NCBI GenBank assembly: GCA_034002865.1
Contig: JAVEZR010000001.1
Span: 53,247-117,246, forward strand
Length of the DNA stretch: 64,000 bases
Reading direction: 5' to 3'
Source of the DNA: Candidatus Dojkabacteria bacterium
GTDB lineage: Bacteria > Patescibacteriota > Dojkabacteria > SC72
The position numbers and the translations under genes are program-made. Positions within the stretch are counted from its first letter, which is position 1; the number at the start of each line of letters is the position of its first letter. The notes beneath the pieces were generated by a model. The model was not told the DNA's origin. It saw only the letters and a program-made list of their open reading frames with translations, and ran no database searches. Below are positions 10,441 through 61,924 of the stretch, piece after piece.

Positions 10441-12255
10441 ATGAAAAAACTCTCTGTATGGTTTAAGGAATTACCCAAATGGGCAAAGATAGTATTTTTC
10501 CCTGCTCTAATCTTAGGCTCTTTAATTCTCTTTCTTTCTATTACATTAATTGTATCTTTATATCTTGATTCTTCTTCTAGATCTCAGAGTAGTACTACAC
10601 AGATAGATTTAGAGAGAAGTGATATAGGGGAAGAGCCTGAGGAAGAGGTTGAAAAAGAGTTTGTTCCTAGCTTAGTTGATTTAGAAATTGATTTACTAGG
10701 AGTACCTTTGAAGATAAATAACAAGTTTGATATCACTGATGTATATCAAGATGAATATATTAAGGACCCTATAGATTTAGATGAATCATTTATAGTTGGG
10801 TACAAGACAGGTAGTATAAAGAAAGGTCGTTTTATGGAGAGTGAACAATTAGCTTACAATTTGAGTGGCTATGATATCTATGTCTTATCTACACTCGAAG
10901 AACATGATTATGTTTACACTGTTAGAATAGCTTACTTAGATGATAACTCCCCAATATTTCTCCTTTCACAAGATCAGAGAGAGCCCGGTGATTTACTTGA
11001 GATCTCTTTAAAGCCTAATGTTATTAATATCTCTTCATACAAGATTACAGATCAGAGCCTGTTTGGGTTGGATATCTTCAAAGGCATGAAATATAACTCA
11101 AAGAAGGTAAGTGACAATGGTAATACTTTTACACTTGGAGCACCGATATTTAAACCGTTGGTAGAAGAATTAAGTAAGTTAGAAGAAATAGATAGCTTTG
11201 GAGAGGTAAAGATTTATAACTACAAAGTAGATATTGAAGGATACTCTGTTGTTGAATCTCCAGAGGGATTCTTACAGAAAGTAGTATATGTTCCTTCCAT
11301 TGTCGAATATGTCAGTAGTGATCCCAAAGTGGAAATAGTGTTGGATAAAACAGGAGAGAAAACAGAACATTTTTACGATTATATATCTGTAGGAGGTTGT
11401 TCAGAAAATGACCTAGAGGTAGCTAATGTAAAGGACACGGAATTAAGAAGTATTGGAAAAGCAAAGGATGGGAATCCAATTTATGTAAAAATTAACAGAA
11501 ATGATAGCTATCTTAAGAAACTTTATAACGAAGACTACCTATCTCCGGGGTCAGAAATGAATAAATATAATTATATTACAGAGGATGATATCACACCTTT
11601 CACATATGAGCAGTTTGTAGACGCGTATCCAATATTATATTGGAAAGATCCTTTTGGTAGATATATTATGTTTGCTAGGAGAGATTTTGTTATTACTGGT
11701 GGTTGTGCAAAGCCTGCAATATATCTCTACCCTGAAGAGAAAACAAGTTTAAATGTAAAGGTTATACCTAATGGATTACTGACATTTACATCTCCTAAGT
11801 ATGAAGTAGGGGGATGGAATATCAACGTAGGTACAGATGGCACCATTAATTATAAAGGGGGGAAGTATGAGTATCTGTGGTGGGATTCTATATCTAACGG
11901 ATACTATACTCCAAGTAATGGTTGGGTTATAGAAAGGGGAAACTTTGAGACTTTCATAACTGAGAAACTACAGGAGATGGGATTGAATGAAAAAGAGATT
12001 AGTGACTTTAATGAGTTTTGGGTCCCCCTTATTAGTAAGGAGAATACTCAATACCTATATATCACATTCCTCTTTAATTCAGAGGTTAATCAGATAGCCA
12101 AATTAGAATTCAGTATACAGCCTGATAATATATTTAGAGTATTCATGCTCTACGAATCTATGGATAAATATAAAGAGGTAAGGCCATTGAAGATAGAGAA
12201 AGTAAGCAGAACAGGCTTTACTGTAGTTGAATGGGGTGGTGCTAAAGAGAGGTAA
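10441..12255 (+). CDS. Hypothetical large extracytoplasmic protein anchored by an N-terminal TM
   Basis: 604 aa. One N-terminal hydrophobic helix (IVFFPALILGSLILFLSITLIV), then a long region rich in Tyr, Asn and Gly. No recognisable catalytic motif. Confidence 0.5.
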   Translation: MKKLSVWFKELPKWAKIVFFPALILGSLILFLSITLIVSLYLDSSSRSQSSTTQIDLERSDIGEEPEEEVEKEFVPSLVDLEIDLLGVPLKINNKFDITDVYQDEYIKDPIDLDESFIVGYKTGSIKKGRFMESEQLAYNLSGYDIYVLSTLEEHDYVYTVRIAYLDDNSPIFLLSQDQREPGDLLEISLKPNVINISSYKITDQSLFGLDIFKGMKYNSKKVSDNGNTFTLGAPIFKPLVEELSKLEEIDSFGEVKIYNYKVDIEGYSVVESPEGFLQKVVYVPSIVEYVSSDPKVEIVLDKTGEKTEHFYDYISVGGCSENDLEVANVKDTELRSIGKAKDGNPIYVKINRNDSYLKKLYNEDYLSPGSEMNKYNYITEDDITPFTYEQFVDAYPILYWKDPFGRYIMFARRDFVITGGCAKPAIYLYPEEKTSLNVKVIPNGLLTFTSPKYEVGGWNINVGTDGTINYKGGKYEYLWWDSISNGYYTPSNGWVIERGNFETFITEKLQEMGLNEKEISDFNEFWVPLISKENTQYLYITFLFNSEVNQIAKLEFSIQPDNIFRVFMLYESMDKYKEVRPLKIEKVSRTGFTVVEWGGAKER

Positions 12256-12334: not shown

Positions 12335-13192
12335 ATGATTCTACTAGATGGTAGTACACTCTCCGATAAGAAGTTAAACAGATTAAGGGATCAAATAAAA
12401 GAGTATATAGATATAGGCTCTAGGACTCCTAGATTAGATATAATTCTTGTAGGTGAAGATTTCGGTAGTAAGAAGTATGTGGGAATGAAACAGAGCAGAG
12501 CAATGGGTTTAGGTATTAAATGTGTTGTTCATGAGTTTGAGTCAACTGTAAAAGAGAAAGAGATAGTAGAGTTAATAGAGAAGTTAAATAGAGATGAGAG
12601 AGTAGATGGCTTAATGGTTCAACTGCCACTACCAAAGGGAATAGACAGTGACATTGTATTAGAAACAATAGATCCTAAGAAGGATGTAGATGGTCTTACA
12701 TCTTCTAACTTAGGTAAACTTTTTAAAAATGACTCCAAAGCAATTGCTCCTGCAACAGCGAAAGGGATATTAGACATACTTAAGGAGTATGAAATAGAGA
12801 TAGATGGTGCAGAAGTAGTAGTAATTGGAAGAAGTGATATTGTAGGCTTACCAACAGCTGCAATATTACAAAATGCTAATGCTACTGTTACTGTATGTCA
12901 TTCTCATACAAAAAATCTCAAAAGTATATGTAAAAGAGCAGATATCTTAGTAGTTGGTATTGGTAAAGCAGAGTATATAGATAAAGGGTATGTAAAAGAT
13001 GGTGCAACTGTGATAGATATAGGTACTAATCGCAATCAAGAGGGGAAACTAGTAGGTGATGTTAAAATGGGTAGTGTAAAGAAGGTTGCAAAATATATTA
13101 CTCCTGTACCAGGTGGTATAGGTCCAATGACTGTAGTATCTCTCCTTGATAATTTGTTTGAGGTATATAAAAAGAATGTTAAGAAATTCTAA
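12335..13192 (+). CDS. folD: Bifunctional methylenetetrahydrofolate dehydrogenase/cyclohydrolase FolD
   Basis: 285 aa with FolD motifs (YVGMKQSRAMGLGIK, VDGLMVQLPLP, DVDGL, VIGRSDIVGLP, PVPGGIGPMTV). Confidence 0.9.
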   Translation: MILLDGSTLSDKKLNRLRDQIKEYIDIGSRTPRLDIILVGEDFGSKKYVGMKQSRAMGLGIKCVVHEFESTVKEKEIVELIEKLNRDERVDGLMVQLPLPKGIDSDIVLETIDPKKDVDGLTSSNLGKLFKNDSKAIAPATAKGILDILKEYEIEIDGAEVVVIGRSDIVGLPTAAILQNANATVTVCHSHTKNLKSICKRADILVVGIGKAEYIDKGYVKDGATVIDIGTNRNQEGKLVGDVKMGSVKKVAKYITPVPGGIGPMTVVSLLDNLFEVYKKNVKKF

Positions 13193-14411
13193 GGATACTA
13201 TTTTCAAATATATAGATGGTGAAGCTAGAAGACAGATAGAGGGTATTGAATTAATAGCTTCTGAAAACTATGTTAGCAAAGACGTACTTACTGCGATGGG
13301 CAGTATACTTACTAATAAATACTCAGAGGGATATCCAGATAAAAGATACTATGGTGGTAATGAATATATAGATAAAATAGAGAAGGAGTGTATAGCTAGA
13401 GCAAAGGATCTGTTTAAAGCAGAGCATGTTAATGTACAGCCTTACTCTGGTTCACCTGCTAACTTAGCTGTTCATTTAGCATTTTTAAATCCAGGAGATA
13501 AGACAATGGGTATGGATCTCTCTGCTGGTGGTCATCTTACACACGGCTTTAAAGTCTCAATTAGTGGTAAATATTTTGACTCAGTAAGTTACGGTGTAAA
13601 TAGTGATGGATATATTGATTACGATGAAGTAAGGAAGATAGCATTAGAACATAGGCCTAAGTTAATATGGAGTGGTTTCTCTGCATACTCTCGTATAATT
13701 GATTGGAGTGAGTTTAGGAAGATTGCAGATGAAATTGACGCTATTCTTGTTGCTGATATTGCTCATGTTGCTGGATTGGTTGCAGGTGGTGTATATCCCT
13801 CTCCTGTAGGTATAGCTGATGTGGTTACTACAACCACTCATAAGACGCTCAGAGGGCCTAGAGGAGCAATGATTATGTGTAAAGAGGAGTATGGAGAGGT
13901 AATAGATAAAGCAGTATTCCCTGGCCTTCAGGGAGGTCCACACAATCATACTACAGCAGCAATAGCTATATCTTTACAAGAGGCTAATACGGATGAATTT
14001 AAGCAGTATTCAAAGCAAACAGTGGATAATGCAAAAACTCTTGCTAATGATTTAATAAAGAGAGGATTTAAGATTGTATCTAATGGAACAGATAACCACC
14101 TTTTTCTCATTGATACAGTAGGTAGTGTGGGTTTAAGTGGTAAAGAAGCCTCTGATATCTTAGAAGAGGTAAATATTACTGTAAACAAGAATAGTATACC
14201 TAATGATACACGTAAACCTTGGGATCCATCAGGTATACGTATTGGTACACCAGCTATTACTACAAGAGGTATGAATGAGAAAGATATGCTCTTTATCTCT
14301 GAAGTAATAGATAGCGCTATTAATAAAAAAGAAGATTTAAAGATATTAAAATCGAAGGTAATAAATTTTACAAAGAGATTTCCAATCCCTGGAATAGAAA
14401 TAAATTCATAA
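13176..14411 (+). CDS. glyA: Serine hydroxymethyltransferase GlyA
   Basis: Canonical SHMT motifs (LIASENYVS, YSEGYP, VQPYSGSPANLAV, the TTTTHKTLRGPRG PLP-lysine region). The track ORF begins at 13146. The Met at 13176 (MLRNSKD...) best matches SHMT N-termini and overlaps the end of folD by 17 nt. Confidence 0.93.
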   Translation: MLRNSKDTIFKYIDGEARRQIEGIELIASENYVSKDVLTAMGSILTNKYSEGYPDKRYYGGNEYIDKIEKECIARAKDLFKAEHVNVQPYSGSPANLAVHLAFLNPGDKTMGMDLSAGGHLTHGFKVSISGKYFDSVSYGVNSDGYIDYDEVRKIALEHRPKLIWSGFSAYSRIIDWSEFRKIADEIDAILVADIAHVAGLVAGGVYPSPVGIADVVTTTTHKTLRGPRGAMIMCKEEYGEVIDKAVFPGLQGGPHNHTTAAIAISLQEANTDEFKQYSKQTVDNAKTLANDLIKRGFKIVSNGTDNHLFLIDTVGSVGLSGKEASDILEEVNITVNKNSIPNDTRKPWDPSGIRIGTPAITTRGMNEKDMLFISEVIDSAINKKEDLKILKSKVINFTKRFPIPGIEINS

Positions 14412-14421
14412 TCTTAAACAC

Positions 14422-16017
14422 ATGAAGGGAACCTTTAGAAAAGATTTACAGATAGCTACTGTAAAATCTCAATCTGTATGGAACAAATTTAAAGTACATA
14501 CTCTTTTACAAAACCCTTCTCAAAAACAACCCTCTATTAATGCATATCTTGGTGCAAGATATAGTAGATCTTCTGACTCTATCCTTGATATTGCCAAGGA
14601 GATTATAAACTCAAATACAGATGCTGCAGACAGATTAGAAAAAATCTTTCATGGGTATGGCCATAAGTCTGTAGGAGATATGGCAGATCTTTTTGTATGT
14701 ATAGAGAATATCCCTATGTTTACTGCAATGAAGATCTTCTACCTTAACTCTGTTATCTCTGGTCAAGAGAGATCTACTAGATATCAGAACTTTGAGAGTC
14801 CAGAATTTATTAAAATACCAAAAGAGCTATGTAAAGATAGTGAGATTAGGAAAGAGTACGACCGTATTATGCTTAAACAGATGTCTGATTACAGAAAACT
14901 ACTTAAGAAGACACGTATATTACTTAAAGAACAGTTTAAAATTAATAAAGAGAATCCTGCAGAGGTATCAGCATGGAAATCTAGATCATTTGATGTAGCA
15001 AGATACTTACTACCGTATGGATTACGAACTAGTTTAGCAGCAGTAATGTCTGCTAGGAATTGGTCTGAATTAATATCTTACTTTAATGCTAATGATAGTG
15101 TGGTAGATAATGAAGTTGCTAACTTACTAATGAACTTACTTGGGGAATCAGATTTAGAGATACGAGGATATATACGAGAGGCAGATGGTTTGATTAAGCA
15201 TACAGATGCAAACTGTTGTAGAAGGAATTCAACTAAGGAAGTTTTACAGTACCTAGAACCTATAATCTCTAAACAGAAAGAATTGAAAGATCTAGGTTGT
15301 GAACAGGATACATGCACTATCTCTTACAATGTAGACCCTGTAGAGGACTTAATTACTCACTATGAACTTCTTTTAAATCCTCTAGGTAGTAAGAAGGAGT
15401 TAGAGTTTGATGAGAAAGACTCAATTTCAATTGGAGAGAAGATATTTGATAACCATAACCATCATAACTTAATGGGAAATATTGGTCAGTCAGGGGCTAT
15501 AAAGATAGAGGGTATGGCTACATTAGGAACATTAAAGGATTTAAATAGGCATAGGAGTTTAGAGAGATATATACCTCTCTTTCATGATCATTTAAATATT
15601 GATAATGAATTAAAGAGGGATGAGAAAGATTGTTTCTCCCTCTGCAACTATCTTGATATAAAAGAGTTGGGGAAATTAAAGGATGAATATGAACAGTGTT
15701 TAGTAGAAACATATAAAATGATAAAGAATTGGAGAAGTGTCTCTAAGCAGTTTATGTCAGAGGAGGTCTCTACTGAATATACAAAATATCTCTTACCTCA
15801 TGCTCACTTCACTAAATACAGTTTCTATGGCTCTATAGATGATTTACAGTATACAATCAATCTTAGGGTTAGAAGAGGTGGACATATTGCATATAGAGTT
15901 TTAGTGTATAAATGGCTAGAATTATTAAATGAGAAAGATTCAATCTGGAAATCATTACTTAAAAGTATTCAGAAACCTGATTATAAATCTAAAGAGCAGT
16001 TTGTAGATAGAAGTTAA
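14422..16017 (+). CDS. thyX: Tandem-duplicated flavin-dependent thymidylate synthase (ThyX-like pseudo-dimer)
   Basis: 531 aa, about twice the length of ThyX. Half 1 (HGYGHKSV...NSVISGQERSTRY, ARYLLPYGLRTSLAAVMSARNWSEL) and half 2 (NIGQSGAI...LNRHRSLERY, YLLPHAHFTKYSFYGSIDDLQYTINLRVRRG) both align to the ThyX core (GHESxxEH...RHRxxSxxxxSxRY; R..LP.n..t....t.N.R.l..f...R). The gene sits between glyA and dcd. Confidence 0.6.
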   Translation: MKGTFRKDLQIATVKSQSVWNKFKVHTLLQNPSQKQPSINAYLGARYSRSSDSILDIAKEIINSNTDAADRLEKIFHGYGHKSVGDMADLFVCIENIPMFTAMKIFYLNSVISGQERSTRYQNFESPEFIKIPKELCKDSEIRKEYDRIMLKQMSDYRKLLKKTRILLKEQFKINKENPAEVSAWKSRSFDVARYLLPYGLRTSLAAVMSARNWSELISYFNANDSVVDNEVANLLMNLLGESDLEIRGYIREADGLIKHTDANCCRRNSTKEVLQYLEPIISKQKELKDLGCEQDTCTISYNVDPVEDLITHYELLLNPLGSKKELEFDEKDSISIGEKIFDNHNHHNLMGNIGQSGAIKIEGMATLGTLKDLNRHRSLERYIPLFHDHLNIDNELKRDEKDCFSLCNYLDIKELGKLKDEYEQCLVETYKMIKNWRSVSKQFMSEEVSTEYTKYLLPHAHFTKYSFYGSIDDLQYTINLRVRRGGHIAYRVLVYKWLELLNEKDSIWKSLLKSIQKPDYKSKEQFVDRS

Positions 16018-16035
16018 TATGTATAGAATATAGAT

Positions 16036-16596
16036 ATGATACTGTCGGATAGAAGTATAAAAGAAAAAATACGTACTGGAGAGATTAGTATAGAGCCTTT
16101 CTCACATGAATTCATACAACCTGCTTCATATGATTTACATTTAGATAAAAATATATTGGTTTTTAATACTAAAAAGTATGACATTATCGATGTAAAAAAA
16201 CCTCTAGATGACTTAATGTTAAAGGTAGAGATTGATGATATAGAGGGGTATACTCTTAAACCTACTGAATTTATCTTAGCTAATGTAGTAGAGATAACTG
16301 GGGTAGATAGTAAGCACGTTGGTAGGTTAGAGGGTAAGAGTTCATTAGCAAGAATGGGTTTAATCATTCATGCTACTGCAGGATTTTTAGATCCGGGTAA
16401 TAAGCTTAGACTTACTCTTGAGATAGCGAATCTTTCTCCATTACCAATTAGAATATATGAGGGTATGAAGATAGCACAGTTAGCTTTTGAACAGCTAGAT
16501 AAGGATTGTGAAAGACCTTACGGTAGTTCTGGCTTAAATAGTAAGTACAAGGGTGATATGACTGTACAGGCAAGTAGGATGTGGAAGAATTTTTAA
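16036..16596 (+). CDS. dcd: dCTP deaminase
   Basis: 186 aa. The N-terminus MILSDRSIKEKIRTGEISIEPF...QPASYDLHL matches the Dcd family, and the size is typical. Confidence 0.88.
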   Translation: MILSDRSIKEKIRTGEISIEPFSHEFIQPASYDLHLDKNILVFNTKKYDIIDVKKPLDDLMLKVEIDDIEGYTLKPTEFILANVVEITGVDSKHVGRLEGKSSLARMGLIIHATAGFLDPGNKLRLTLEIANLSPLPIRIYEGMKIAQLAFEQLDKDCERPYGSSGLNSKYKGDMTVQASRMWKNF

Positions 16597-16614: not shown

Positions 16615-17904
16615 ATGTTTAAAGATATCAGAAAAGAGTTTCCAATATTAAAAGATTCTCTTTTTGGTAAAAAGTTTGTGTATTTAGATAGTGCTGCATC
16701 TACACAGAAACCTGAGTATGTAATCGAACGTCTTAAGAAATACTATGTAGAGGAGAATGCAAATATTCATAGAGGCCCATATGATCTTTCTGTGAATGGT
16801 ACAAAGCTTTGGGAGTGGGCTCATGAGAAGGTAGCCTCCTTTATCAATGCTAAGTCATATAAAGAGATAATCTTTGTTAGAAATACTACAGAGGGTTTAA
16901 ATTTCTTAGTAAATACATTCGGTAGAGAGCTACTGTCAAAGGGGGATACTGTAGTTGTGAGTGAGATGGAGCATCACAGTAATATTGTTTCTTGGATGTT
17001 ATTACAAAAGCAGATTGATTTTAAAATAGAGTATATTCCTTTAAAGGAGGATTTTACTTTAGATTTAGATTGGTTAAGAGAGTTGATAAAGAGAGAGGGT
17101 AGTAGGATAAAGATAGTTTCTGTTGTACATATATCTAATGTATTAGGTGTAAAGAATGATGTAGAGGAGATATTTAAGATTGCTAAAGAGAATAGCTCTT
17201 TTACAATCCTTGATGCTGCTCAAAGCATTGTTCATACCAAGGTTGATGTTCAAAAGATTGGTTGTGATGCTTTGGTGTTCTCTGGACATAAGGCGTATGC
17301 TCCTACAGGTACGGGAGCGATATATTGTAAGCAGGAATACTTAGAGAAACTTACACCATGGATGGGTGGTGGAGAGATGATATCTTCTGTGTCTTTTAAA
17401 GATTTTGAATACAATGAACTACCGTGGAAGTTTGAGGCTGGTACTCCAGATATAGGGGGAGGTATTGTACTTGGTAGTGCAATAGAGTGGTTTGAGAATA
17501 CATTAGAGAGGATAGGGGGTTGGGATGGTTTAATAGAGCATGAGCAGGGATTAATAAAGTTTTTCTTTAATGAGTTTGATGGTATTGAGTGGTTTAAACA
17601 TTTTGGGCCAAAGGATAGCTCTCTGAAGTATGGTGCTATCGCATTTCATCTTGATGGTTTTACATTTAGAGGCTGTAAGGATATTTTTAGGATAGAAACA
17701 AATAGGGAGGGAAACAGTATTAGTGAGTTTCTTAACGAGAGTGGAATAGCCTTCAGAGAGGGTTATCACTGTGCAGAGCCTTTGCATGATAAGTTGTGTG
17801 TAGGTCCTTCATTAAGATTTAGTTTAGGTATATATAATAACCAAGATGATCTTAAATATGCTGCTAATATGCTTAAACAGGCGGTTTTGAGAGGAATGGA
17901 GTAA
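16615..17904 (+). CDS. sufS: Cysteine desulfurase, SufS/Csd family (class V aminotransferase)
   Basis: SufS-like throughout (DSAASTQKP, ANIHRGPYDLS, SEMEHHSNIVSW, FSGHKAYAPTGTGAIY, FEAGTPDIGG, the REGYHCAEPL active-site Cys region). Confidence 0.85.
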   Translation: MFKDIRKEFPILKDSLFGKKFVYLDSAASTQKPEYVIERLKKYYVEENANIHRGPYDLSVNGTKLWEWAHEKVASFINAKSYKEIIFVRNTTEGLNFLVNTFGRELLSKGDTVVVSEMEHHSNIVSWMLLQKQIDFKIEYIPLKEDFTLDLDWLRELIKREGSRIKIVSVVHISNVLGVKNDVEEIFKIAKENSSFTILDAAQSIVHTKVDVQKIGCDALVFSGHKAYAPTGTGAIYCKQEYLEKLTPWMGGGEMISSVSFKDFEYNELPWKFEAGTPDIGGGIVLGSAIEWFENTLERIGGWDGLIEHEQGLIKFFFNEFDGIEWFKHFGPKDSSLKYGAIAFHLDGFTFRGCKDIFRIETNREGNSISEFLNESGIAFREGYHCAEPLHDKLCVGPSLRFSLGIYNNQDDLKYAANMLKQAVLRGME

Positions 17905-17985: not shown

Positions 17986-19152
17986 ATGATATATTTTGAT
18001 ATGGATTTAAATAGTGCCCGGAGCAATGCTCCTGTAAATACAGCTAATGATATTCTCTCTGAGATTGTAGAGCTGCAAAACAAGCTTAGTACTTCTCCTG
18101 CACCAATAGAGCTTAAAGAAGATGTAATGAGAACCATTCAGAGATTGGAGAGAATGGCAAAATGGGGTAACTATAGCTCAGAGTTTGAGAGTGTAGATAA
18201 GTATGTAGACTGGGTAACAAGAATACCTTGGGGAGTTATCTCAGAGGATAACTTGAATATTGAGAATGCGAAAGAGCTAATGGACTCTACACACTACGGT
18301 ATGGATGTTGTAAAGAATTTGATACTAGATTACTTAGCAGTAATGCAGATACAGAAGTTAACAGGTAGGAACACTCCTCAGAGTAGTAACTCAGATATGG
18401 CTGGACTAAGGGGTTCATCTGCTAATGCTCCTGTACTTCTTTTCTTAGGCCTACAGGGTGTAGGTAAAACCTCTATTGCAAAATCCATAGCTCAGTCAAT
18501 GGGAAGGAAGTTCGCTAGAGTCTCACTTGGAGCTATTGGAGATGTAAGAACATTAAGAGGTTCACCAAGGCATGAGATTGATTCCGAGCCAGGACAGATA
18601 ATTAAGGCACTAGTTAGGACAGGTACAATGAATCCAGTAATTTTAATTGATGAGATAGAGAAAGCAAGTGGTAATGCTGGTTTACTTAATGATGTAATGG
18701 CAGCTCTACTTGAGATATTAGATTCAGAGCAGAACTCTACTTTTATAGACCACTATGTTGATCATCCTGTAGATTTATCTCAAGTATTTTTCATATGTAC
18801 AGCAAATAACCTAGGCGGGTTATCTGCAGCACTGTTAGATAGGGTGGAGATAATTAGGTTTACTAGTTACTCTGATGAAGAGAAAGGTGTAATAGCTAAG
18901 TCATATATACTACCTAAGGTTTTAAAAAATATGGGACTTACAGATCAACATATTCAAATTACACAGGAGGTATGGCCACTACTAATTAGGCCTGTTGGTT
19001 TTGATGCAGGTATAAGGCAGTTAGAAAGAAATATTGCTACATTAGCTAGAAGTGCTGCTAGACAGATAGTAGGGGGGCATCCTTTACCAATAGTTGTAAC
19101 ACCTGAGAATGTTAAAGAGTATGTACTTCCAGATCAAGGCCCTCTAAGTTAA
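17986..19152 (+). CDS. Lon-like AAA+ ATPase module with no N-terminal LAN domain and no C-terminal protease domain
   Basis: Matches the Lon coiled-coil linker and AAA+ core: YVDWVTRIPWG, HYGMDVVKNLILDYLAV, Walker A GLQGVGKTSIAKSIA, Walker B VILIDEIEK, sensor LLDRVEIIRF. The ORF stops right after the AAA+ small domain. Confidence 0.75.
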   Translation: MIYFDMDLNSARSNAPVNTANDILSEIVELQNKLSTSPAPIELKEDVMRTIQRLERMAKWGNYSSEFESVDKYVDWVTRIPWGVISEDNLNIENAKELMDSTHYGMDVVKNLILDYLAVMQIQKLTGRNTPQSSNSDMAGLRGSSANAPVLLFLGLQGVGKTSIAKSIAQSMGRKFARVSLGAIGDVRTLRGSPRHEIDSEPGQIIKALVRTGTMNPVILIDEIEKASGNAGLLNDVMAALLEILDSEQNSTFIDHYVDHPVDLSQVFFICTANNLGGLSAALLDRVEIIRFTSYSDEEKGVIAKSYILPKVLKNMGLTDQHIQITQEVWPLLIRPVGFDAGIRQLERNIATLARSAARQIVGGHPLPIVVTPENVKEYVLPDQGPLS

Positions 19153-59914: not shown

Positions 59915-61924
59915 GTGGCACCTCAAGATATAATTCTCGGAAAACTAAATCCACAGCAAAGAATTGCAGTGGAAACAACAGAGGGACCTTTGCTCGTATT
60001 CGCAGGGGCTGGATCAGGTAAAACAAGAGTTATTACCAACAGAATAGCCTACCTAATTACAGAGAAAAAGGTTTCTCCCGAGAACATCCTGGCAGTAACA
60101 TTCACTAAAAAAGCAGCAGGAGAAATGCAAGAAAGGGTAGTAGGACTTCTTAAGGAGTTAAATGTCAATGCAAAGAAACCTCCACTTATTGGAACTTTCC
60201 ATTCAATAGGTGCACTCTTCCTTAGGGAGAATTCTAAAGAGGTAGGATTAACTCCCAACTTCTCTATCTATGACAGTGCAGATTCTGAGAACTTAGTAAA
60301 AGATATACTTGTTGAACAGGGTATTGATATAAAACAGATTAGGCCTAAGGCTATCTCTTACTTCATATCCTCTGCAAAGAATGAAATGGTTTCCCCTGAG
60401 AACTTTAGAAATCACTACGGTGGCTTTATAGAGGATATTGTTGCAGATATATATCCTTTGTATCAAAAACAGCTATTAGCACAAAATTCTGTTGATTTTG
60501 GAGATCTCCTATATCTAGCAGTGAAACTACTTTCAGAGAAGAAAGATGTTCTTTCTAGATATCAAGAGTATTACAGATATATGATGATTGATGAGTATCA
60601 AGATACTAACAATGCACAGTATATGTTTGCCAAATTACTCTCTGAGAAGTATAAAAATATATGTGTAGTAGGTGATGATGATCAGGGTATATATGCATGG
60701 AGAGGTGCTGATATTAAAAATATTCAATCTTTTGAAAAAGATTTTGAGAATGTAAAAACAGTTAAGTTGGAACAGAATTATAGATCTAGTGCTAATGTAA
60801 TAGATGCTGCTACTGCTGTTATTAAACAGAATTACTCTAGAGTAGAGAAGGCCCTTTGGACAGAGAAAGAGTCAGGAGAGAGTATTACTGTATATCAATC
60901 ATTAGATCAAGATGATGAAGCTCAGTATGTGATGGATGAGATAGAGAATCTGAAGAGAAAGGGAGAAAAGCTCTCTAATATGGCAGTACTGTATCGAACT
61001 AACTATCAATCTCGTGTAATTGAGGAGGCTCTCTTAAAGAGAGGTTTGCCTTATAAATTGGTAGGAGGTTTTAGATTCTATGAGAGAAAAGAGGTAAAAG
61101 ATATTCTTAGCTATATGAGGTTTATACATAATATTAAAGATGAGTTAAGCCTTTCAAGAATATTAAATACACCTACAAGGAAAGTAGGTCCTAAGTCAGT
61201 GGCAACACTGCATGAAATTGCAAAATCATGTGAATGCTCTGTAGGAGAATTACTGGTAGCCACATATGAGATTGAGAATAGTATAGAGAGAAGATTAAAA
61301 ATATCCCCTCAGAGATATTCTAAAATAGAGGAAAAGATCTCTTTAATGGGTAAGTATACAAACTTAGTAAATATCTTTGGGGAAATATATACTGACTCAC
61401 AAGGGGAAGATGCTCTTACTGTAATAGACATTATTCTAAGAAAAATTAAGTATATACAGTGGATGGATGATGGTTCAGAGGCTGCAGAGTACAAGAAAGA
61501 GAATATAGAGGAGCTAAAGAATGTTGCCAGCAGTTATGCCCAGAAACATGGAGATAAATCTTTAGACGTACTCTTACAAGAGATAAATCTTTTAGAACAG
61601 GAACAGGATAAAAATCAAGATGGTAGTGGTAACTATGTTAACCTTATGACTTTACACTCTTCTAAAGGTTTAGAATTTGAAAATGTCTTCATTATTGGTA
61701 TGGAGGAAGGGATACTTCCACACTCTAGATCTTTCACTGATGAAGATGGCTTGGAAGAGGAAAGAAGGCTTTGCTATGTAGGTATTACAAGAGCAAGAGA
61801 GAAGCTGTATTTAACATTCGCAGATAAAAGGCAGGGAAGAGAAGGATATAATACTCAGATACCATCTAGATTCTTAGGAGAGATACCTCAAGATATTTGT
61901 GAATATTACAGTTGGCAAACTTAG
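59915..61924 (+). CDS. uvrD: ATP-dependent DNA helicase UvrD/PcrA family
   Basis: GTG start. LNPQQRIAVETTEGPLLVFAGAGSGKTRVITNRIAYLI (motifs Q and I), DEYQDTN (II), VGDDDQGIYAWRGA (III), and the C-terminal VGITRAREKLYLT (VI). 669 aa. Confidence 0.9.
   Translation: MAPQDIILGKLNPQQRIAVETTEGPLLVFAGAGSGKTRVITNRIAYLITEKKVSPENILAVTFTKKAAGEMQERVVGLLKELNVNAKKPPLIGTFHSIGALFLRENSKEVGLTPNFSIYDSADSENLVKDILVEQGIDIKQIRPKAISYFISSAKNEMVSPENFRNHYGGFIEDIVADIYPLYQKQLLAQNSVDFGDLLYLAVKLLSEKKDVLSRYQEYYRYMMIDEYQDTNNAQYMFAKLLSEKYKNICVVGDDDQGIYAWRGADIKNIQSFEKDFENVKTVKLEQNYRSSANVIDAATAVIKQNYSRVEKALWTEKESGESITVYQSLDQDDEAQYVMDEIENLKRKGEKLSNMAVLYRTNYQSRVIEEALLKRGLPYKLVGGFRFYERKEVKDILSYMRFIHNIKDELSLSRILNTPTRKVGPKSVATLHEIAKSCECSVGELLVATYEIENSIERRLKISPQRYSKIEEKISLMGKYTNLVNIFGEIYTDSQGEDALTVIDIILRKIKYIQWMDDGSEAAEYKKENIEELKNVASSYAQKHGDKSLDVLLQEINLLEQEQDKNQDGSGNYVNLMTLHSSKGLEFENVFIIGMEEGILPHSRSFTDEDGLEEERRLCYVGITRAREKLYLTFADKRQGREGYNTQIPSRFLGEIPQDICEYYSWQT

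Follow-up and report, generated by a model that had tools for sequence, protein, structure and literature searches.

A predicted two-domain flavin-dependent thymidylate synthase in Candidatus Dojkabacteria, with catalytic motifs divided between two fused ThyX-like halves

Canonical flavin-dependent thymidylate synthases, ThyX, are chains of approximately 220-250 aa that assemble into homotetramers with four identical active sites. The question raised by the locus described here, located within a 64-kb stretch of Candidatus Dojkabacteria DNA (the window, meaning the whole stretch analyzed), is what to make of a ThyX-like chain of 531 aa, and whether its two halves could build together the active sites that neither appears equipped to build by itself. 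The open reading frame, on the forward strand, is exactly as a preliminary description of this DNA had it (Table 1), and an identical protein is found in NCBI as MDX9738797.1, annotated as 'FAD-dependent thymidylate synthase [Candidatus Dojkabacteria bacterium].' The whole protein matches the Pfam family Thy1 (PF02511) with 79.4 bits (cut-off 24.8), over two separate stretches, and it scores 39.3 bits with the thyX equivalog model TIGR02170, far under the curated cut-off of 87.9. Our reading, to which we would give a probability of roughly three in four, is that this is a functional two-domain flavin-dependent thymidylate synthase, a product of an ancient duplication followed by complementary loss of active-site parts, and that it works as a homodimeric pseudo-tetramer; it draws on comparisons of sequences and on modeled folds.

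Table 1. Positions of the two-domain thyX gene, its neighbors, and its catalytic motifs in the window.
Feature	Position	Strand	Basis	Assignment or remark
folD (methylene-THF dehydrogenase/cyclohydrolase)	12335..13192	+	Pfam PF00763, PF02882	upstream of thyX
glyA (serine hydroxymethyltransferase, SHMT)	13146..14411	+	Pfam SHMT, E = 3.7e-161	regenerates CH2-THF
Two-domain thyX	14422..16017	+	ORF list; Pfam Thy1	531 aa plus stop, ATG start
Predicted N-terminal ThyX-fold domain, residues 1-262	14422..15207	+	Pfam, hhalign, AF2	subunit-B/-C type residues
GYGHKS	14653..14670	+		H81 = T. maritima H53; S83 = T55 (M. tuberculosis S71); flavin/folate side
YLNS	14740..14751	+	profile alignment to T. maritima R78-H79-R80	degenerate RHR position of the N-terminal half
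SGQERSTRY, residues 113-121	14758..14784	+		substrate loop; E116 = E86, S118 = S88, R120 = R90, Y121 = Y91 (T. maritima)
ARYLLP	14998..15015	+		R194 = T. maritima R147, dUMP phosphate ligand
SAR	15049..15057	+	PMC6514825	R212 = T. maritima R165 (M. tuberculosis R190), subunit-B FAD phosphate ligand
Predicted C-terminal ThyX-fold domain, residues 263-531	15208..16014	+	hhalign, AF2, Foldseek	subunit-A type residues
NRHR-SLERY	15544..15570	+		sole RHR motif (R376, H377, R378), NRHR at residues 375-378; Ser loop absent
NLRVRRGGHIAYR	15859..15897	+	PMC8316439	R482 = T. maritima R174, dUMP-activating Arg; H488 ~ H178
FVDRS	16000..16014	+		C-terminal tail; R530 near-invariant, 140/141
dcd (dCTP deaminase)	16036..16596	+	TIGR02274, 172.9 bits (cut-off 92.8)	supplies deoxyuridine nucleotide precursor

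From the single sequence, the alignment of both halves with ThyX is marginal. The N-terminal half alone matches Thy1 with 63.6 bits (E = 2.7e-17), the C-terminal half alone with 19.2 bits (E = 0.0011), under the Pfam cut-off of 24.8, and a direct BLASTP comparison of one half with the other reveals no significant similarity. The relationship emerges from profile comparison (hhalign), with a family profile built from 141 sequences: residues 65-226 of the N-terminal half align with residues 37-179 of the T. maritima enzyme (E = 6.9e-6 versus canonical ThyX), residues 335-507 of the C-terminal half align with residues 42-199 (E = 3.3e-6), and the two halves match each other at E = 4.4e-6. Significance is reached only with 141 sequences, a 30-sequence profile of the halves giving only E = 0.055. 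Both halves, and not just one of them, are thus significantly related to ThyX, and the internal duplication proposed in the preliminary description gains support from these values as well as from the predicted fold. The AF2 model of the C-terminal half alone (pLDDT 80.8), when compared with the PDB by Foldseek, has ThyX structures for all of its 50 best matches (top match 4fzb_E, E = 8.9e-5), and the order of secondary-structure elements is the same in the N-terminal and the C-terminal halves; as modeled, each half is of the ThyX fold. Searches of the PDB sequences with the 531-aa protein (phmmer) and with the family profile (hmmsearch) returned no ThyX match, so the relatedness to the solved enzymes is established by profile-profile and fold comparison. 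None of the PDB entries searched is a tandem ThyX.

The active site of canonical ThyX is composed of parts of three subunits, according to a 2019 review (PMC6514825); in the M. tuberculosis enzyme RHR and R199 come from subunit A, S71 and R190 from subunit B, and S105, R107, and Y108 from subunit C (PMC6514825). For R174, S88, R90, Y91, and H53, the catalytic roles have been set out in PMC8316439 and PMC11940539. When set against the three-subunit assignment (PMC6514825), the C-terminal half conserves only the subunit-A set, and the N-terminal half only the B and C sets. In terms of the T. maritima residues, the N-terminal half possesses the equivalents of H53, S88, R90, Y91, R147, and R165, without RHR, and the C-terminal half possesses RHR along with the R174 equivalent, without the S88/E86 loop, R165, or a conserved R147. 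The complementary loss noticed earlier, with SGQERSTRY in the N-terminal half only and RHR in the C-terminal half only, stands, as does the absence of the Ser loop from the C-terminal half, in which SLERY follows straight after RHR and approximately 7 residues are missing. The RHR site of the N-terminal half is indeed degenerate, but the residues originally named for it, NSV, were off by one to two positions, a shift of no consequence: the profile alignment places Y107, L108, and S110 there, in columns that are variable across the 141-member family.

Among the 141 diverse family members, the retained catalytic residues are conserved at approximately 90% or above, except for E116 and Y121, at 81% each, the latter position being Tyr or Phe in 99% (Tyr in 115 members, Phe in 25). 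In the N-terminal half, H81 and S83 are each kept in 139/141, S118 in all 141, Q115 and R120 in 139 each, R194 in 136, and R212 in 127; in the C-terminal half, R376 is kept in 139, H377 in 125, and R378 in 134, and around the R174 equivalent the counts are 139 for R482, 135 for G486, 133 for Y491, and 128 for R492.

Some further details of the two halves were observed. In the C-terminal half, a conserved pair, R382-[FY]383, directly follows RHR and could be a remnant of R90-Y91, and H347 occupies the H53 position; this half may not be wholly 'dead' for the H53/R90-Y91 roles. In the N-terminal half, the R174 equivalent can be placed to within one column, at F221/N222 in this protein, and the N222 column is occupied by K or R in 92 of the 141 members.

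The division of motifs extends far beyond this gene. RHR is confined to the C-terminal half in 111 of 113 close relatives, 122 of 129 distant representatives, and all 119 Chlamydia-type proteins, and E-x-S-x-R-Y is confined to the N-terminal half in 110/113, 109/129, and 119/119, respectively, with both motifs split in the complementary fashion in 108/113, 102/129, and 119/119. An RHR motif within the N-terminal half is found in none of the 113 close relatives and in three of the 129 distant ones. In canonical ThyX, RHR and S-x-R-Y are contiguous in 120 of 120 sequences, and the pattern RHR-x(7-8)-S-x-R-Y within one domain is absent from both halves of the 531-aa protein. Ten distant representatives that were looked up are annotated as 'FAD-dependent thymidylate synthase [Dojkabacteria]' or carry no annotation.

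One biochemically characterized relative is the ThyX of Chlamydia trachomatis (CT632), belonging to a family distributed in Chlamydiae, Verrucomicrobia, and Lentisphaerae. The profile of this Chlamydia-type family aligns end to end with the 531-aa protein (hhalign, Prob 100, E = 2e-54, residues 1-531 to 1-521, 478 columns), and in BLASTP the enzymes match at E ~1e-17 over approximately 480-530 residues, at approximately 21-23% identity. The 529-aa FAD-dependent thymidylate synthase of C. trachomatis falls in a 90% cluster of the family (P0392) and shares with the Dojkabacteria protein the two-domain layout, the near-equal length, and the split of motifs. The differences are in the H53 position, occupied by Asp in Chlamydia (GYGDDS) and by His in the Dojkabacteria protein (GYGHKS), in the F-x-D-R-S tail and the GGHIxYR motif that are typical of the Patescibacteria branch as compared to the Chlamydia family, and in the host lineage, Candidatus Dojkabacteria being part of the candidate phyla radiation. 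Catalysis by the C. trachomatis enzyme, FAD-dependent dTMP synthesis, was reportedly studied by Griffin et al. in 2005. The same enzyme has been used in inhibitor screens (PMC6514825). A duplicated ThyX was also noted in Chloroflexi by Valas and Bourne (2009; PMC3224940), who called it uncharacterized and did not discuss the motif split; going by its description only, it is of the same kind of architecture. This remark was the only mention of tandem or duplicated ThyX, or of Patescibacteria ThyX, in the literature searched. The tandem arrangement that the preliminary description suggested looking for in related genomes is not only present there but is the hallmark of a very large class that includes the C. 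trachomatis enzyme. The tandem design is already known, from thousands of bacteria including Chlamydia, and the gene in question is a largely ordinary member of this class; the arrangement is not peculiar to this gene and is much less novel than was first implied.

The gene neighborhood speaks to the metabolic role. The folD-glyA-thyX-dcd block read from the sequence earlier was confirmed by Pfam and NCBIfam models, and this order is kept in most of 79 related loci. The NCBIfam FolD models match folD, though under their equivalog cut-offs, and the position of this gene is kept in related loci; glyA adjoins thyX in most of them, and dcd is still next to thyX in loci of distant Patescibacteria (L057, L058, L061, and L078). 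The start codon of glyA is uncertain, as the mechanically assigned TTG start overlaps folD. Besides these three genes, the neighbors of thyX include a SufS-family gene and a gene for a Lon-like AAA+ protein, with no nucleoside-antibiotic cluster. In HMM scans, no second ThyX-like or ThyA-like open reading frame was found in the 64-kb window, in line with the earlier view of this gene as the sole thymidylate synthase candidate there, and a query with E. coli ThyA produced nothing significant in the window in either tblastn or phmmer. Since tblastn with T. maritima ThyX missed even the two-domain thyX itself, it is from the HMM scans that we conclude that the window holds no second thyX. Scanning the window for Rfam families and for tRNAs brought up nothing relevant. 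In the cycle that we propose, dCTP would be converted to a deoxyuridine nucleotide, dUMP and CH2-THF to dTMP and THF, and THF and serine back to CH2-THF, with SHMT, FolD, and dCTP deaminase acting beside the two-domain ThyX. Judging from the 64-kb window, the gene almost certainly encodes the thymidylate synthase of this organism, as part of a compact dTMP-cycle operon.

How might such a protein build its active sites? In an ancient internal duplication, two ThyX domains would have become joined in a single chain, and each copy would then have shed the parts of the active site that the other kept. The C-terminal domain would now provide the share of subunit A, with R376-H377-R378 binding FAD and dUMP and R482 activating dUMP; the N-terminal domain would provide the share of subunit B, through H81, S83, and R212 (T. 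maritima H53, T55, and R165), as well as that of subunit C, through the loop residues E116, S118, R120, and Y121, with R194 (R147) on this domain too. The match between the split residue sets and the published three-subunit site (PMC6514825) suggests a homodimer acting as a pseudo-tetramer, and it lends support to the earlier idea of composite sites formed across the halves. In this homodimer, the four domains of the two chains would imitate the ThyX tetramer, each of two working sites would be made of the C-terminal domain of one chain and the N-terminal domains of both, and the remaining two pockets would be catalytically dead. As to canonical ThyX, such as those of T. maritima (TM0449), M. 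tuberculosis (Rv2754c), H. pylori, and PBCV-1 (A674R), their fold is that of each half, their catalytic residues are those of both halves combined, and the FAD- and CH2-THF-dependent chemistry is presumably common to both types. In the tandem enzyme, in contrast, the motif is divided between two fused, diverged domains, and two sites per pseudo-tetramer would be expected. The dimeric state, the two sites per dimer, the FAD stoichiometry, and the catalytic activity of the 531-aa protein are all what we infer from its sequence.

Other explanations have to be weighed against this reading. That the long open reading frame is an artifact of assembly or annotation, joining two adjacent thyX genes, has practically no chance of being correct and was rejected. 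Nothing was found in its favor, and uninterrupted open reading frames of approximately 531 aa occur in more than 100 independent clusters, of Dojkabacteria, and in 79 genome loci, independent contigs encode the identical protein, and, among the best 150 of the 1285 relatives (representatives at 50% identity, E <= 0.001), most are 500-620 aa long and match near end to end. More serious is the proposal that only one half is catalytic and the other a scaffold, with no cross-domain sites, as in a monomer or with a different site architecture. The C-terminal half is hardly recognizable when taken singly, and pairwise BLAST does not connect it with the N-terminal half, as such a division of roles would have it. 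However, the essential residues are not all present in either half by itself, strong purifying selection acts on both residue sets in approximately 360 sequences from three sub-families, and the equivalent residues in canonical ThyX belong to different subunits of one site, making this proposal an unlikely one. The opposite possibility, of four complete dUMP/FAD sites per dimer, which the preliminary description had envisaged, could invoke the His at the H53 position of the C-terminal half (H347) and the R382-[FY]383 pair, which might partly replace the lost loop. We consider it highly improbable: with the N-terminal half in the role of subunit A, RHR would be missing and, in this protein, the R174 position would not be basic; the C-terminal half lacks R165, the loop with S88 and E86, and any conserved R147; and, under the 222 pseudo-symmetry, a site is made up either of two N-terminal domains and one C-terminal domain or of the reverse, which leaves a single type of site that can be complete. 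The geometry, in other words, allows two complete sites per homodimer and no more.

A further alternative concerns the substrate. The protein could be a ThyX-fold enzyme with a function other than that of the cell's thymidylate synthase, such as a PolB-like UMP/dUMP C5-methylase, a hydroxymethylase, or another flavin-dependent methyltransferase; its failure to reach the curated thyX equivalog threshold and its great divergence from canonical ThyX would agree with that. This alternative appears quite improbable, given that the dUMP-activating and flavin-side residues of true ThyX, the equivalents of R174, S88, R90, Y91, R147, and RHR, are all conserved, that the protein's homolog in Chlamydia is a genuine dTMP synthase, and that the 64-kb window contains no further thymidylate synthase. 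The gene also has glyA on one side and dcd on the other, within a conserved block for one-carbon and deoxyuridine metabolism, and not in a natural-product cluster. The comparison with PolB (PDB 4p5a), the ThyX-like UMP/dUMP methylase of polyoxin biosynthesis, is instructive in this respect: PolB is a single-domain protein from an antibiotic biosynthesis cluster, whereas the Dojkabacteria thyX belongs to a housekeeping block.

A bolder extension of the two-site reading is that the tandem ThyX class as a whole, including Chlamydia, consists of two-site homodimeric pseudo-tetramers in which the degenerate pockets have been repurposed. We regard this as a rather unlikely, speculative scenario. Such pockets may, for example, serve as a regulatory nucleotide site or as a dedicated docking site for NADPH or folate, and they may make use of the partly conserved His cluster at residues 345-348 or of the near-invariant R530. 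Neither a two-site architecture nor a second function for tandem ThyX was found in the literature searched.

Humans have no ThyX, and the enzyme is a target for antibacterials. In the PDB as searched, there is no structure of its two-domain form, the one used by Chlamydia and by many bacteria not yet cultured. A compact dTMP-cycle operon is in keeping with the reduced metabolism of the Dojkabacteria. If two composite sites are indeed assembled from complementary, half-degenerate domains, the tandem enzymes would offer a clean example from nature of how an oligomeric enzyme subfunctionalizes once it has been duplicated internally. The low scores of tandem proteins against the curated single-domain thyX models would then be explained, and the two-site architecture would be relevant to the design of inhibitors against the Chlamydia enzyme.

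As to the gene itself, the fused ORF of the preliminary description is borne out by its ATG start and by two stretches matching PF02511 (Thy1/ThyX; 79.4 bits for the whole protein). The N-half (residues 1-262) alone matches this model with 63.6 bits (E = 2.7e-17) and the C-half (residues 263-531) with 19.2 bits (E = 0.0011), under the curated cut-off of 24.8, and against TIGR02170, the curated model of single-domain thyX, the entire protein reaches 39.3 bits, short of the cut-off of 87.9. As the C-half scores below the cut-off, and as BLASTP finds no match between the N-half and the C-half, the claimed similarity of each half to the ThyX core is marginal for the C-half at the level of single sequences, but it holds for profiles and for the fold. 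The relatives gathered comprise close ones, 150 representatives returned by phmmer from the full library, and canonical ThyX of Thermotogae; for profile-profile comparison, 141 full-length relatives were aligned and cut at residue 270. Against canonical, single-domain ThyX, the N-half profile yields E = 6.9e-6 (residues 65-226 on residues 37-179 of the Thermotoga maritima enzyme, whose query sequence matches the PDB-derived entry P0272 at 100% identity), the C-half profile yields E = 3.3e-6 (residues 335-507 on 42-199), and the two match each other with E = 4.4e-6. Residues 262-531, modeled alone (pLDDT 80.8), retrieve ThyX in 50 of the top 50 PDB matches (best 4fzb_E, E = 8.9e-5), with modest TM-scores of 0.4-0.5. 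Both halves are ThyX-fold domains. By sequence, no PDB entry is matched by the protein or by a family profile of 30 members.

The protein, identical to NCBI MDX9738797.1 ('FAD-dependent thymidylate synthase [Candidatus Dojkabacteria bacterium]'), is an uncharacterised member of a known two-domain ThyX class, and the two-domain design is class-wide and ancient, not peculiar to this gene. Its architecture is widespread: 1285 cluster representatives (50% identity) match the protein at E<=0.001. Of the best 150, the majority are 500-620 aa long and align nearly end to end. A search with the Chlamydia enzyme, about 529 aa long, retrieved proteins of 529-531 aa from Chlamydia. The best match is P0392 (86% identity), whose 90% cluster includes the FAD-dependent thymidylate synthases of C. 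trachomatis and C. muridarum. The Chlamydia type aligns with the Patescibacteria family over the full length of the profiles (Prob 100, E = 2e-54, 478 columns). Searched against PDB, the Chlamydia protein matched only single-domain ThyX chains (C-half E~1e-3, N-half E~0.02), and no tandem ThyX structure was found there. Griffin et al. are said to have carried out a kinetic study of C. trachomatis ThyX in 2005, and this enzyme has also been employed in inhibitor screens.

The proposed division of the conserved motifs between the halves is upheld by residue mapping (see table; T. maritima numbering was checked against the named PDB mutants H53D, S88A, E144R, and R174K), by conservation in the 141 relatives, and by motif counts. 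In canonical ThyX, the RHR and E-x-S-x-R-Y motifs are contiguous in 120/120 sequences. Among 113 close relatives, RHR is found in 111 C-halves and no N-half, and E-x-S-x-R-Y in 110 N-halves and no C-half; for 129 distant representatives, the respective numbers are 122 and 3, and 109 and 0. The Chlamydia type has the same split in 119 of 119 sequences. The kept residues are nearly invariant: in the N-half, H81, S83, and R120 (139/141 each), S118 (141/141), R194 (136/141), and R212 (127/141), and in the C-half, R376 and R482 (139/141 each), H377 (125/141), and R378 (134/141), while the positions 'lost' from each half are variable. In the C-half, SLERY follows straight after RHR, the approximately seven residues that hold T. 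maritima S83-S88 being missing, K455 occupies the R147 position, and the R165 position is without Arg. Three features qualify the split. In the C-half, H347 is at the H53 position, with His kept in 77/141 relatives, and the conserved R382-[FY]383 may be a remnant of R90-Y91. In the N-half, the column beside the R174 position is K/R in 92/141 relatives, although this protein has F221/N222. The C-terminal tail F-x-D-R-S (residues 527-531), a signature of Patescibacteria-type tandem ThyX, is outside the segment aligned to canonical ThyX; its R530 is present in 140/141 diverse sequences, and the tail might reach into an active site and stand in for a lost arginine.

Features of the window and residue equivalents from profile alignment
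Feature	Position	Strand	T. maritima equivalent or remark
Two-domain thyX ORF	14422-16017	+	ATG start, 531 aa
N-half H81			H53
N-half S83			T55
N-half E116			E86
N-half S118			S88
N-half R120			R90
N-half Y121			Y91
N-half R194			R147
N-half R212			R165
N-half Y107, L108, S110			at R78, H79, R80 (RHR)
C-half R376-H377-R378			R78-H79-R80
C-half R482			R174
F-x-D-R-S tail	16000-16014	+
Orphan ORF	10441-12255	+	604 aa
folD/glyA overlap	13146-13192	+	47 nt
glyA in-frame ATG	13176		MLRNSKD...
SufS-family gene	16615-17904
Lon-like gene	17986-19152	+	388 aa
ORF with Rfam match	59915-61924		669 aa
RF03531 match	61727-61827	+	65.3 bits

The folD-glyA-thyX-dcd block is confirmed by matches of the neighbours to FolD (PF00763 and PF02882), SHMT (Pfam E = 3.7e-161), and dCTP deaminase (TIGR02274, 172.9 bits; cut-off 92.8), and by related loci: the order is kept in most of the 79 compared (mostly Candidatus Dojkabacteria), and dcd still adjoins thyX in distant Patescibacteria. 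The gene also remains the sole thymidylate synthase candidate in the window, as HMM scans of all its 288 six-frame ORFs with canonical ThyX, E. coli ThyA, and each half of the protein found no second ThyX-like or ThyA-like sequence. The conserved block, along with the lack of a second ThyX or ThyA within these 64 kb, supports a probable housekeeping role in the dTMP cycle.

As mechanically called, glyA has a TTG start and overlaps the end of folD; the SHMT match starts at residue 14 of this ORF, and the in-frame ATG is the more likely start. Further neighbours encode a SufS-family protein, downstream of dcd, and a Lon-like AAA+ protein. In one Dojkabacteria sub-group (L022, L024, L026, L028-L033, and other loci), the former has no match (tblastn E<1e-8), and dcd and the Lon-like gene are set apart by approximately 1.3-2 kb of other sequence. 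Most related loci keep the Lon-like gene downstream of the thyX block. Its product combines an AAA+ module with a Lon lid domain, with neither the Lon protease domain nor the N-terminal substrate-binding domain detected by Pfam, and may be a Lon-like ATPase that lacks the protease. Between an ABC-transporter gene and folD lies the orphan ORF, which is without a Pfam match and without a tblastn match in the 79 related loci, and in a 95%-identical relative (L001) just ~70 bp separate these two genes; the region looks like a strain-specific insertion of ~1.9 kb. The sole Rfam match in the window, RF03531 (a Clostridioides difficile sRNA 'included into helicase gene'; gathering score 65.2), lies inside a long ORF and is most likely conserved coding sequence, not an sRNA. 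No tRNA or tmRNA genes were found across the 64 kb, and G+C is ~33-39% throughout.

According to a review of FDTS structures (PMC6514825), the active-site residues of Mycobacterium tuberculosis ThyX are shared out among three subunits: A supplies RHR (95-97) and R199 (R174 in T. maritima), B supplies S71 and R190 (T55, R165), and C supplies S105, R107, and Y108 (S88, R90, Y91), with no subunit named for T. maritima R147. R174 activates dUMP, S88, R90, and Y91 aid methylene transfer (PMC8316439), and H53 makes a stacking contact with flavin or folate (PMC11940539). The conserved set of the C-half is exactly that of the subunit-A residues, and the conserved set of the N-half is exactly that of subunits B and C. 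In a 222-symmetric tetramer of two N-domains and two C-domains, each site would combine a pair of like domains with a single domain of the other kind, and the only complete type would be that with a C-domain as A and two N-domains as B and C, the other type being deprived of every role. The fused chain would then form a homodimer imitating the tetramer, with two working sites and two degenerate ones. Thus, since only one site type would be complete, we infer from the residue split a homodimeric pseudo-tetramer with two predicted functional sites. The idea of a fused pseudo-dimer rebuilding composite sites survives in that the split fits a three-subunit site, but two sites per dimer are expected, not four. 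No description of complementary degeneration or of a two-site dimer was found in the literature searched. The two-site pseudo-tetramer is an explicit and testable model for a class that is without a structure and that includes a drug target of a pathogen.
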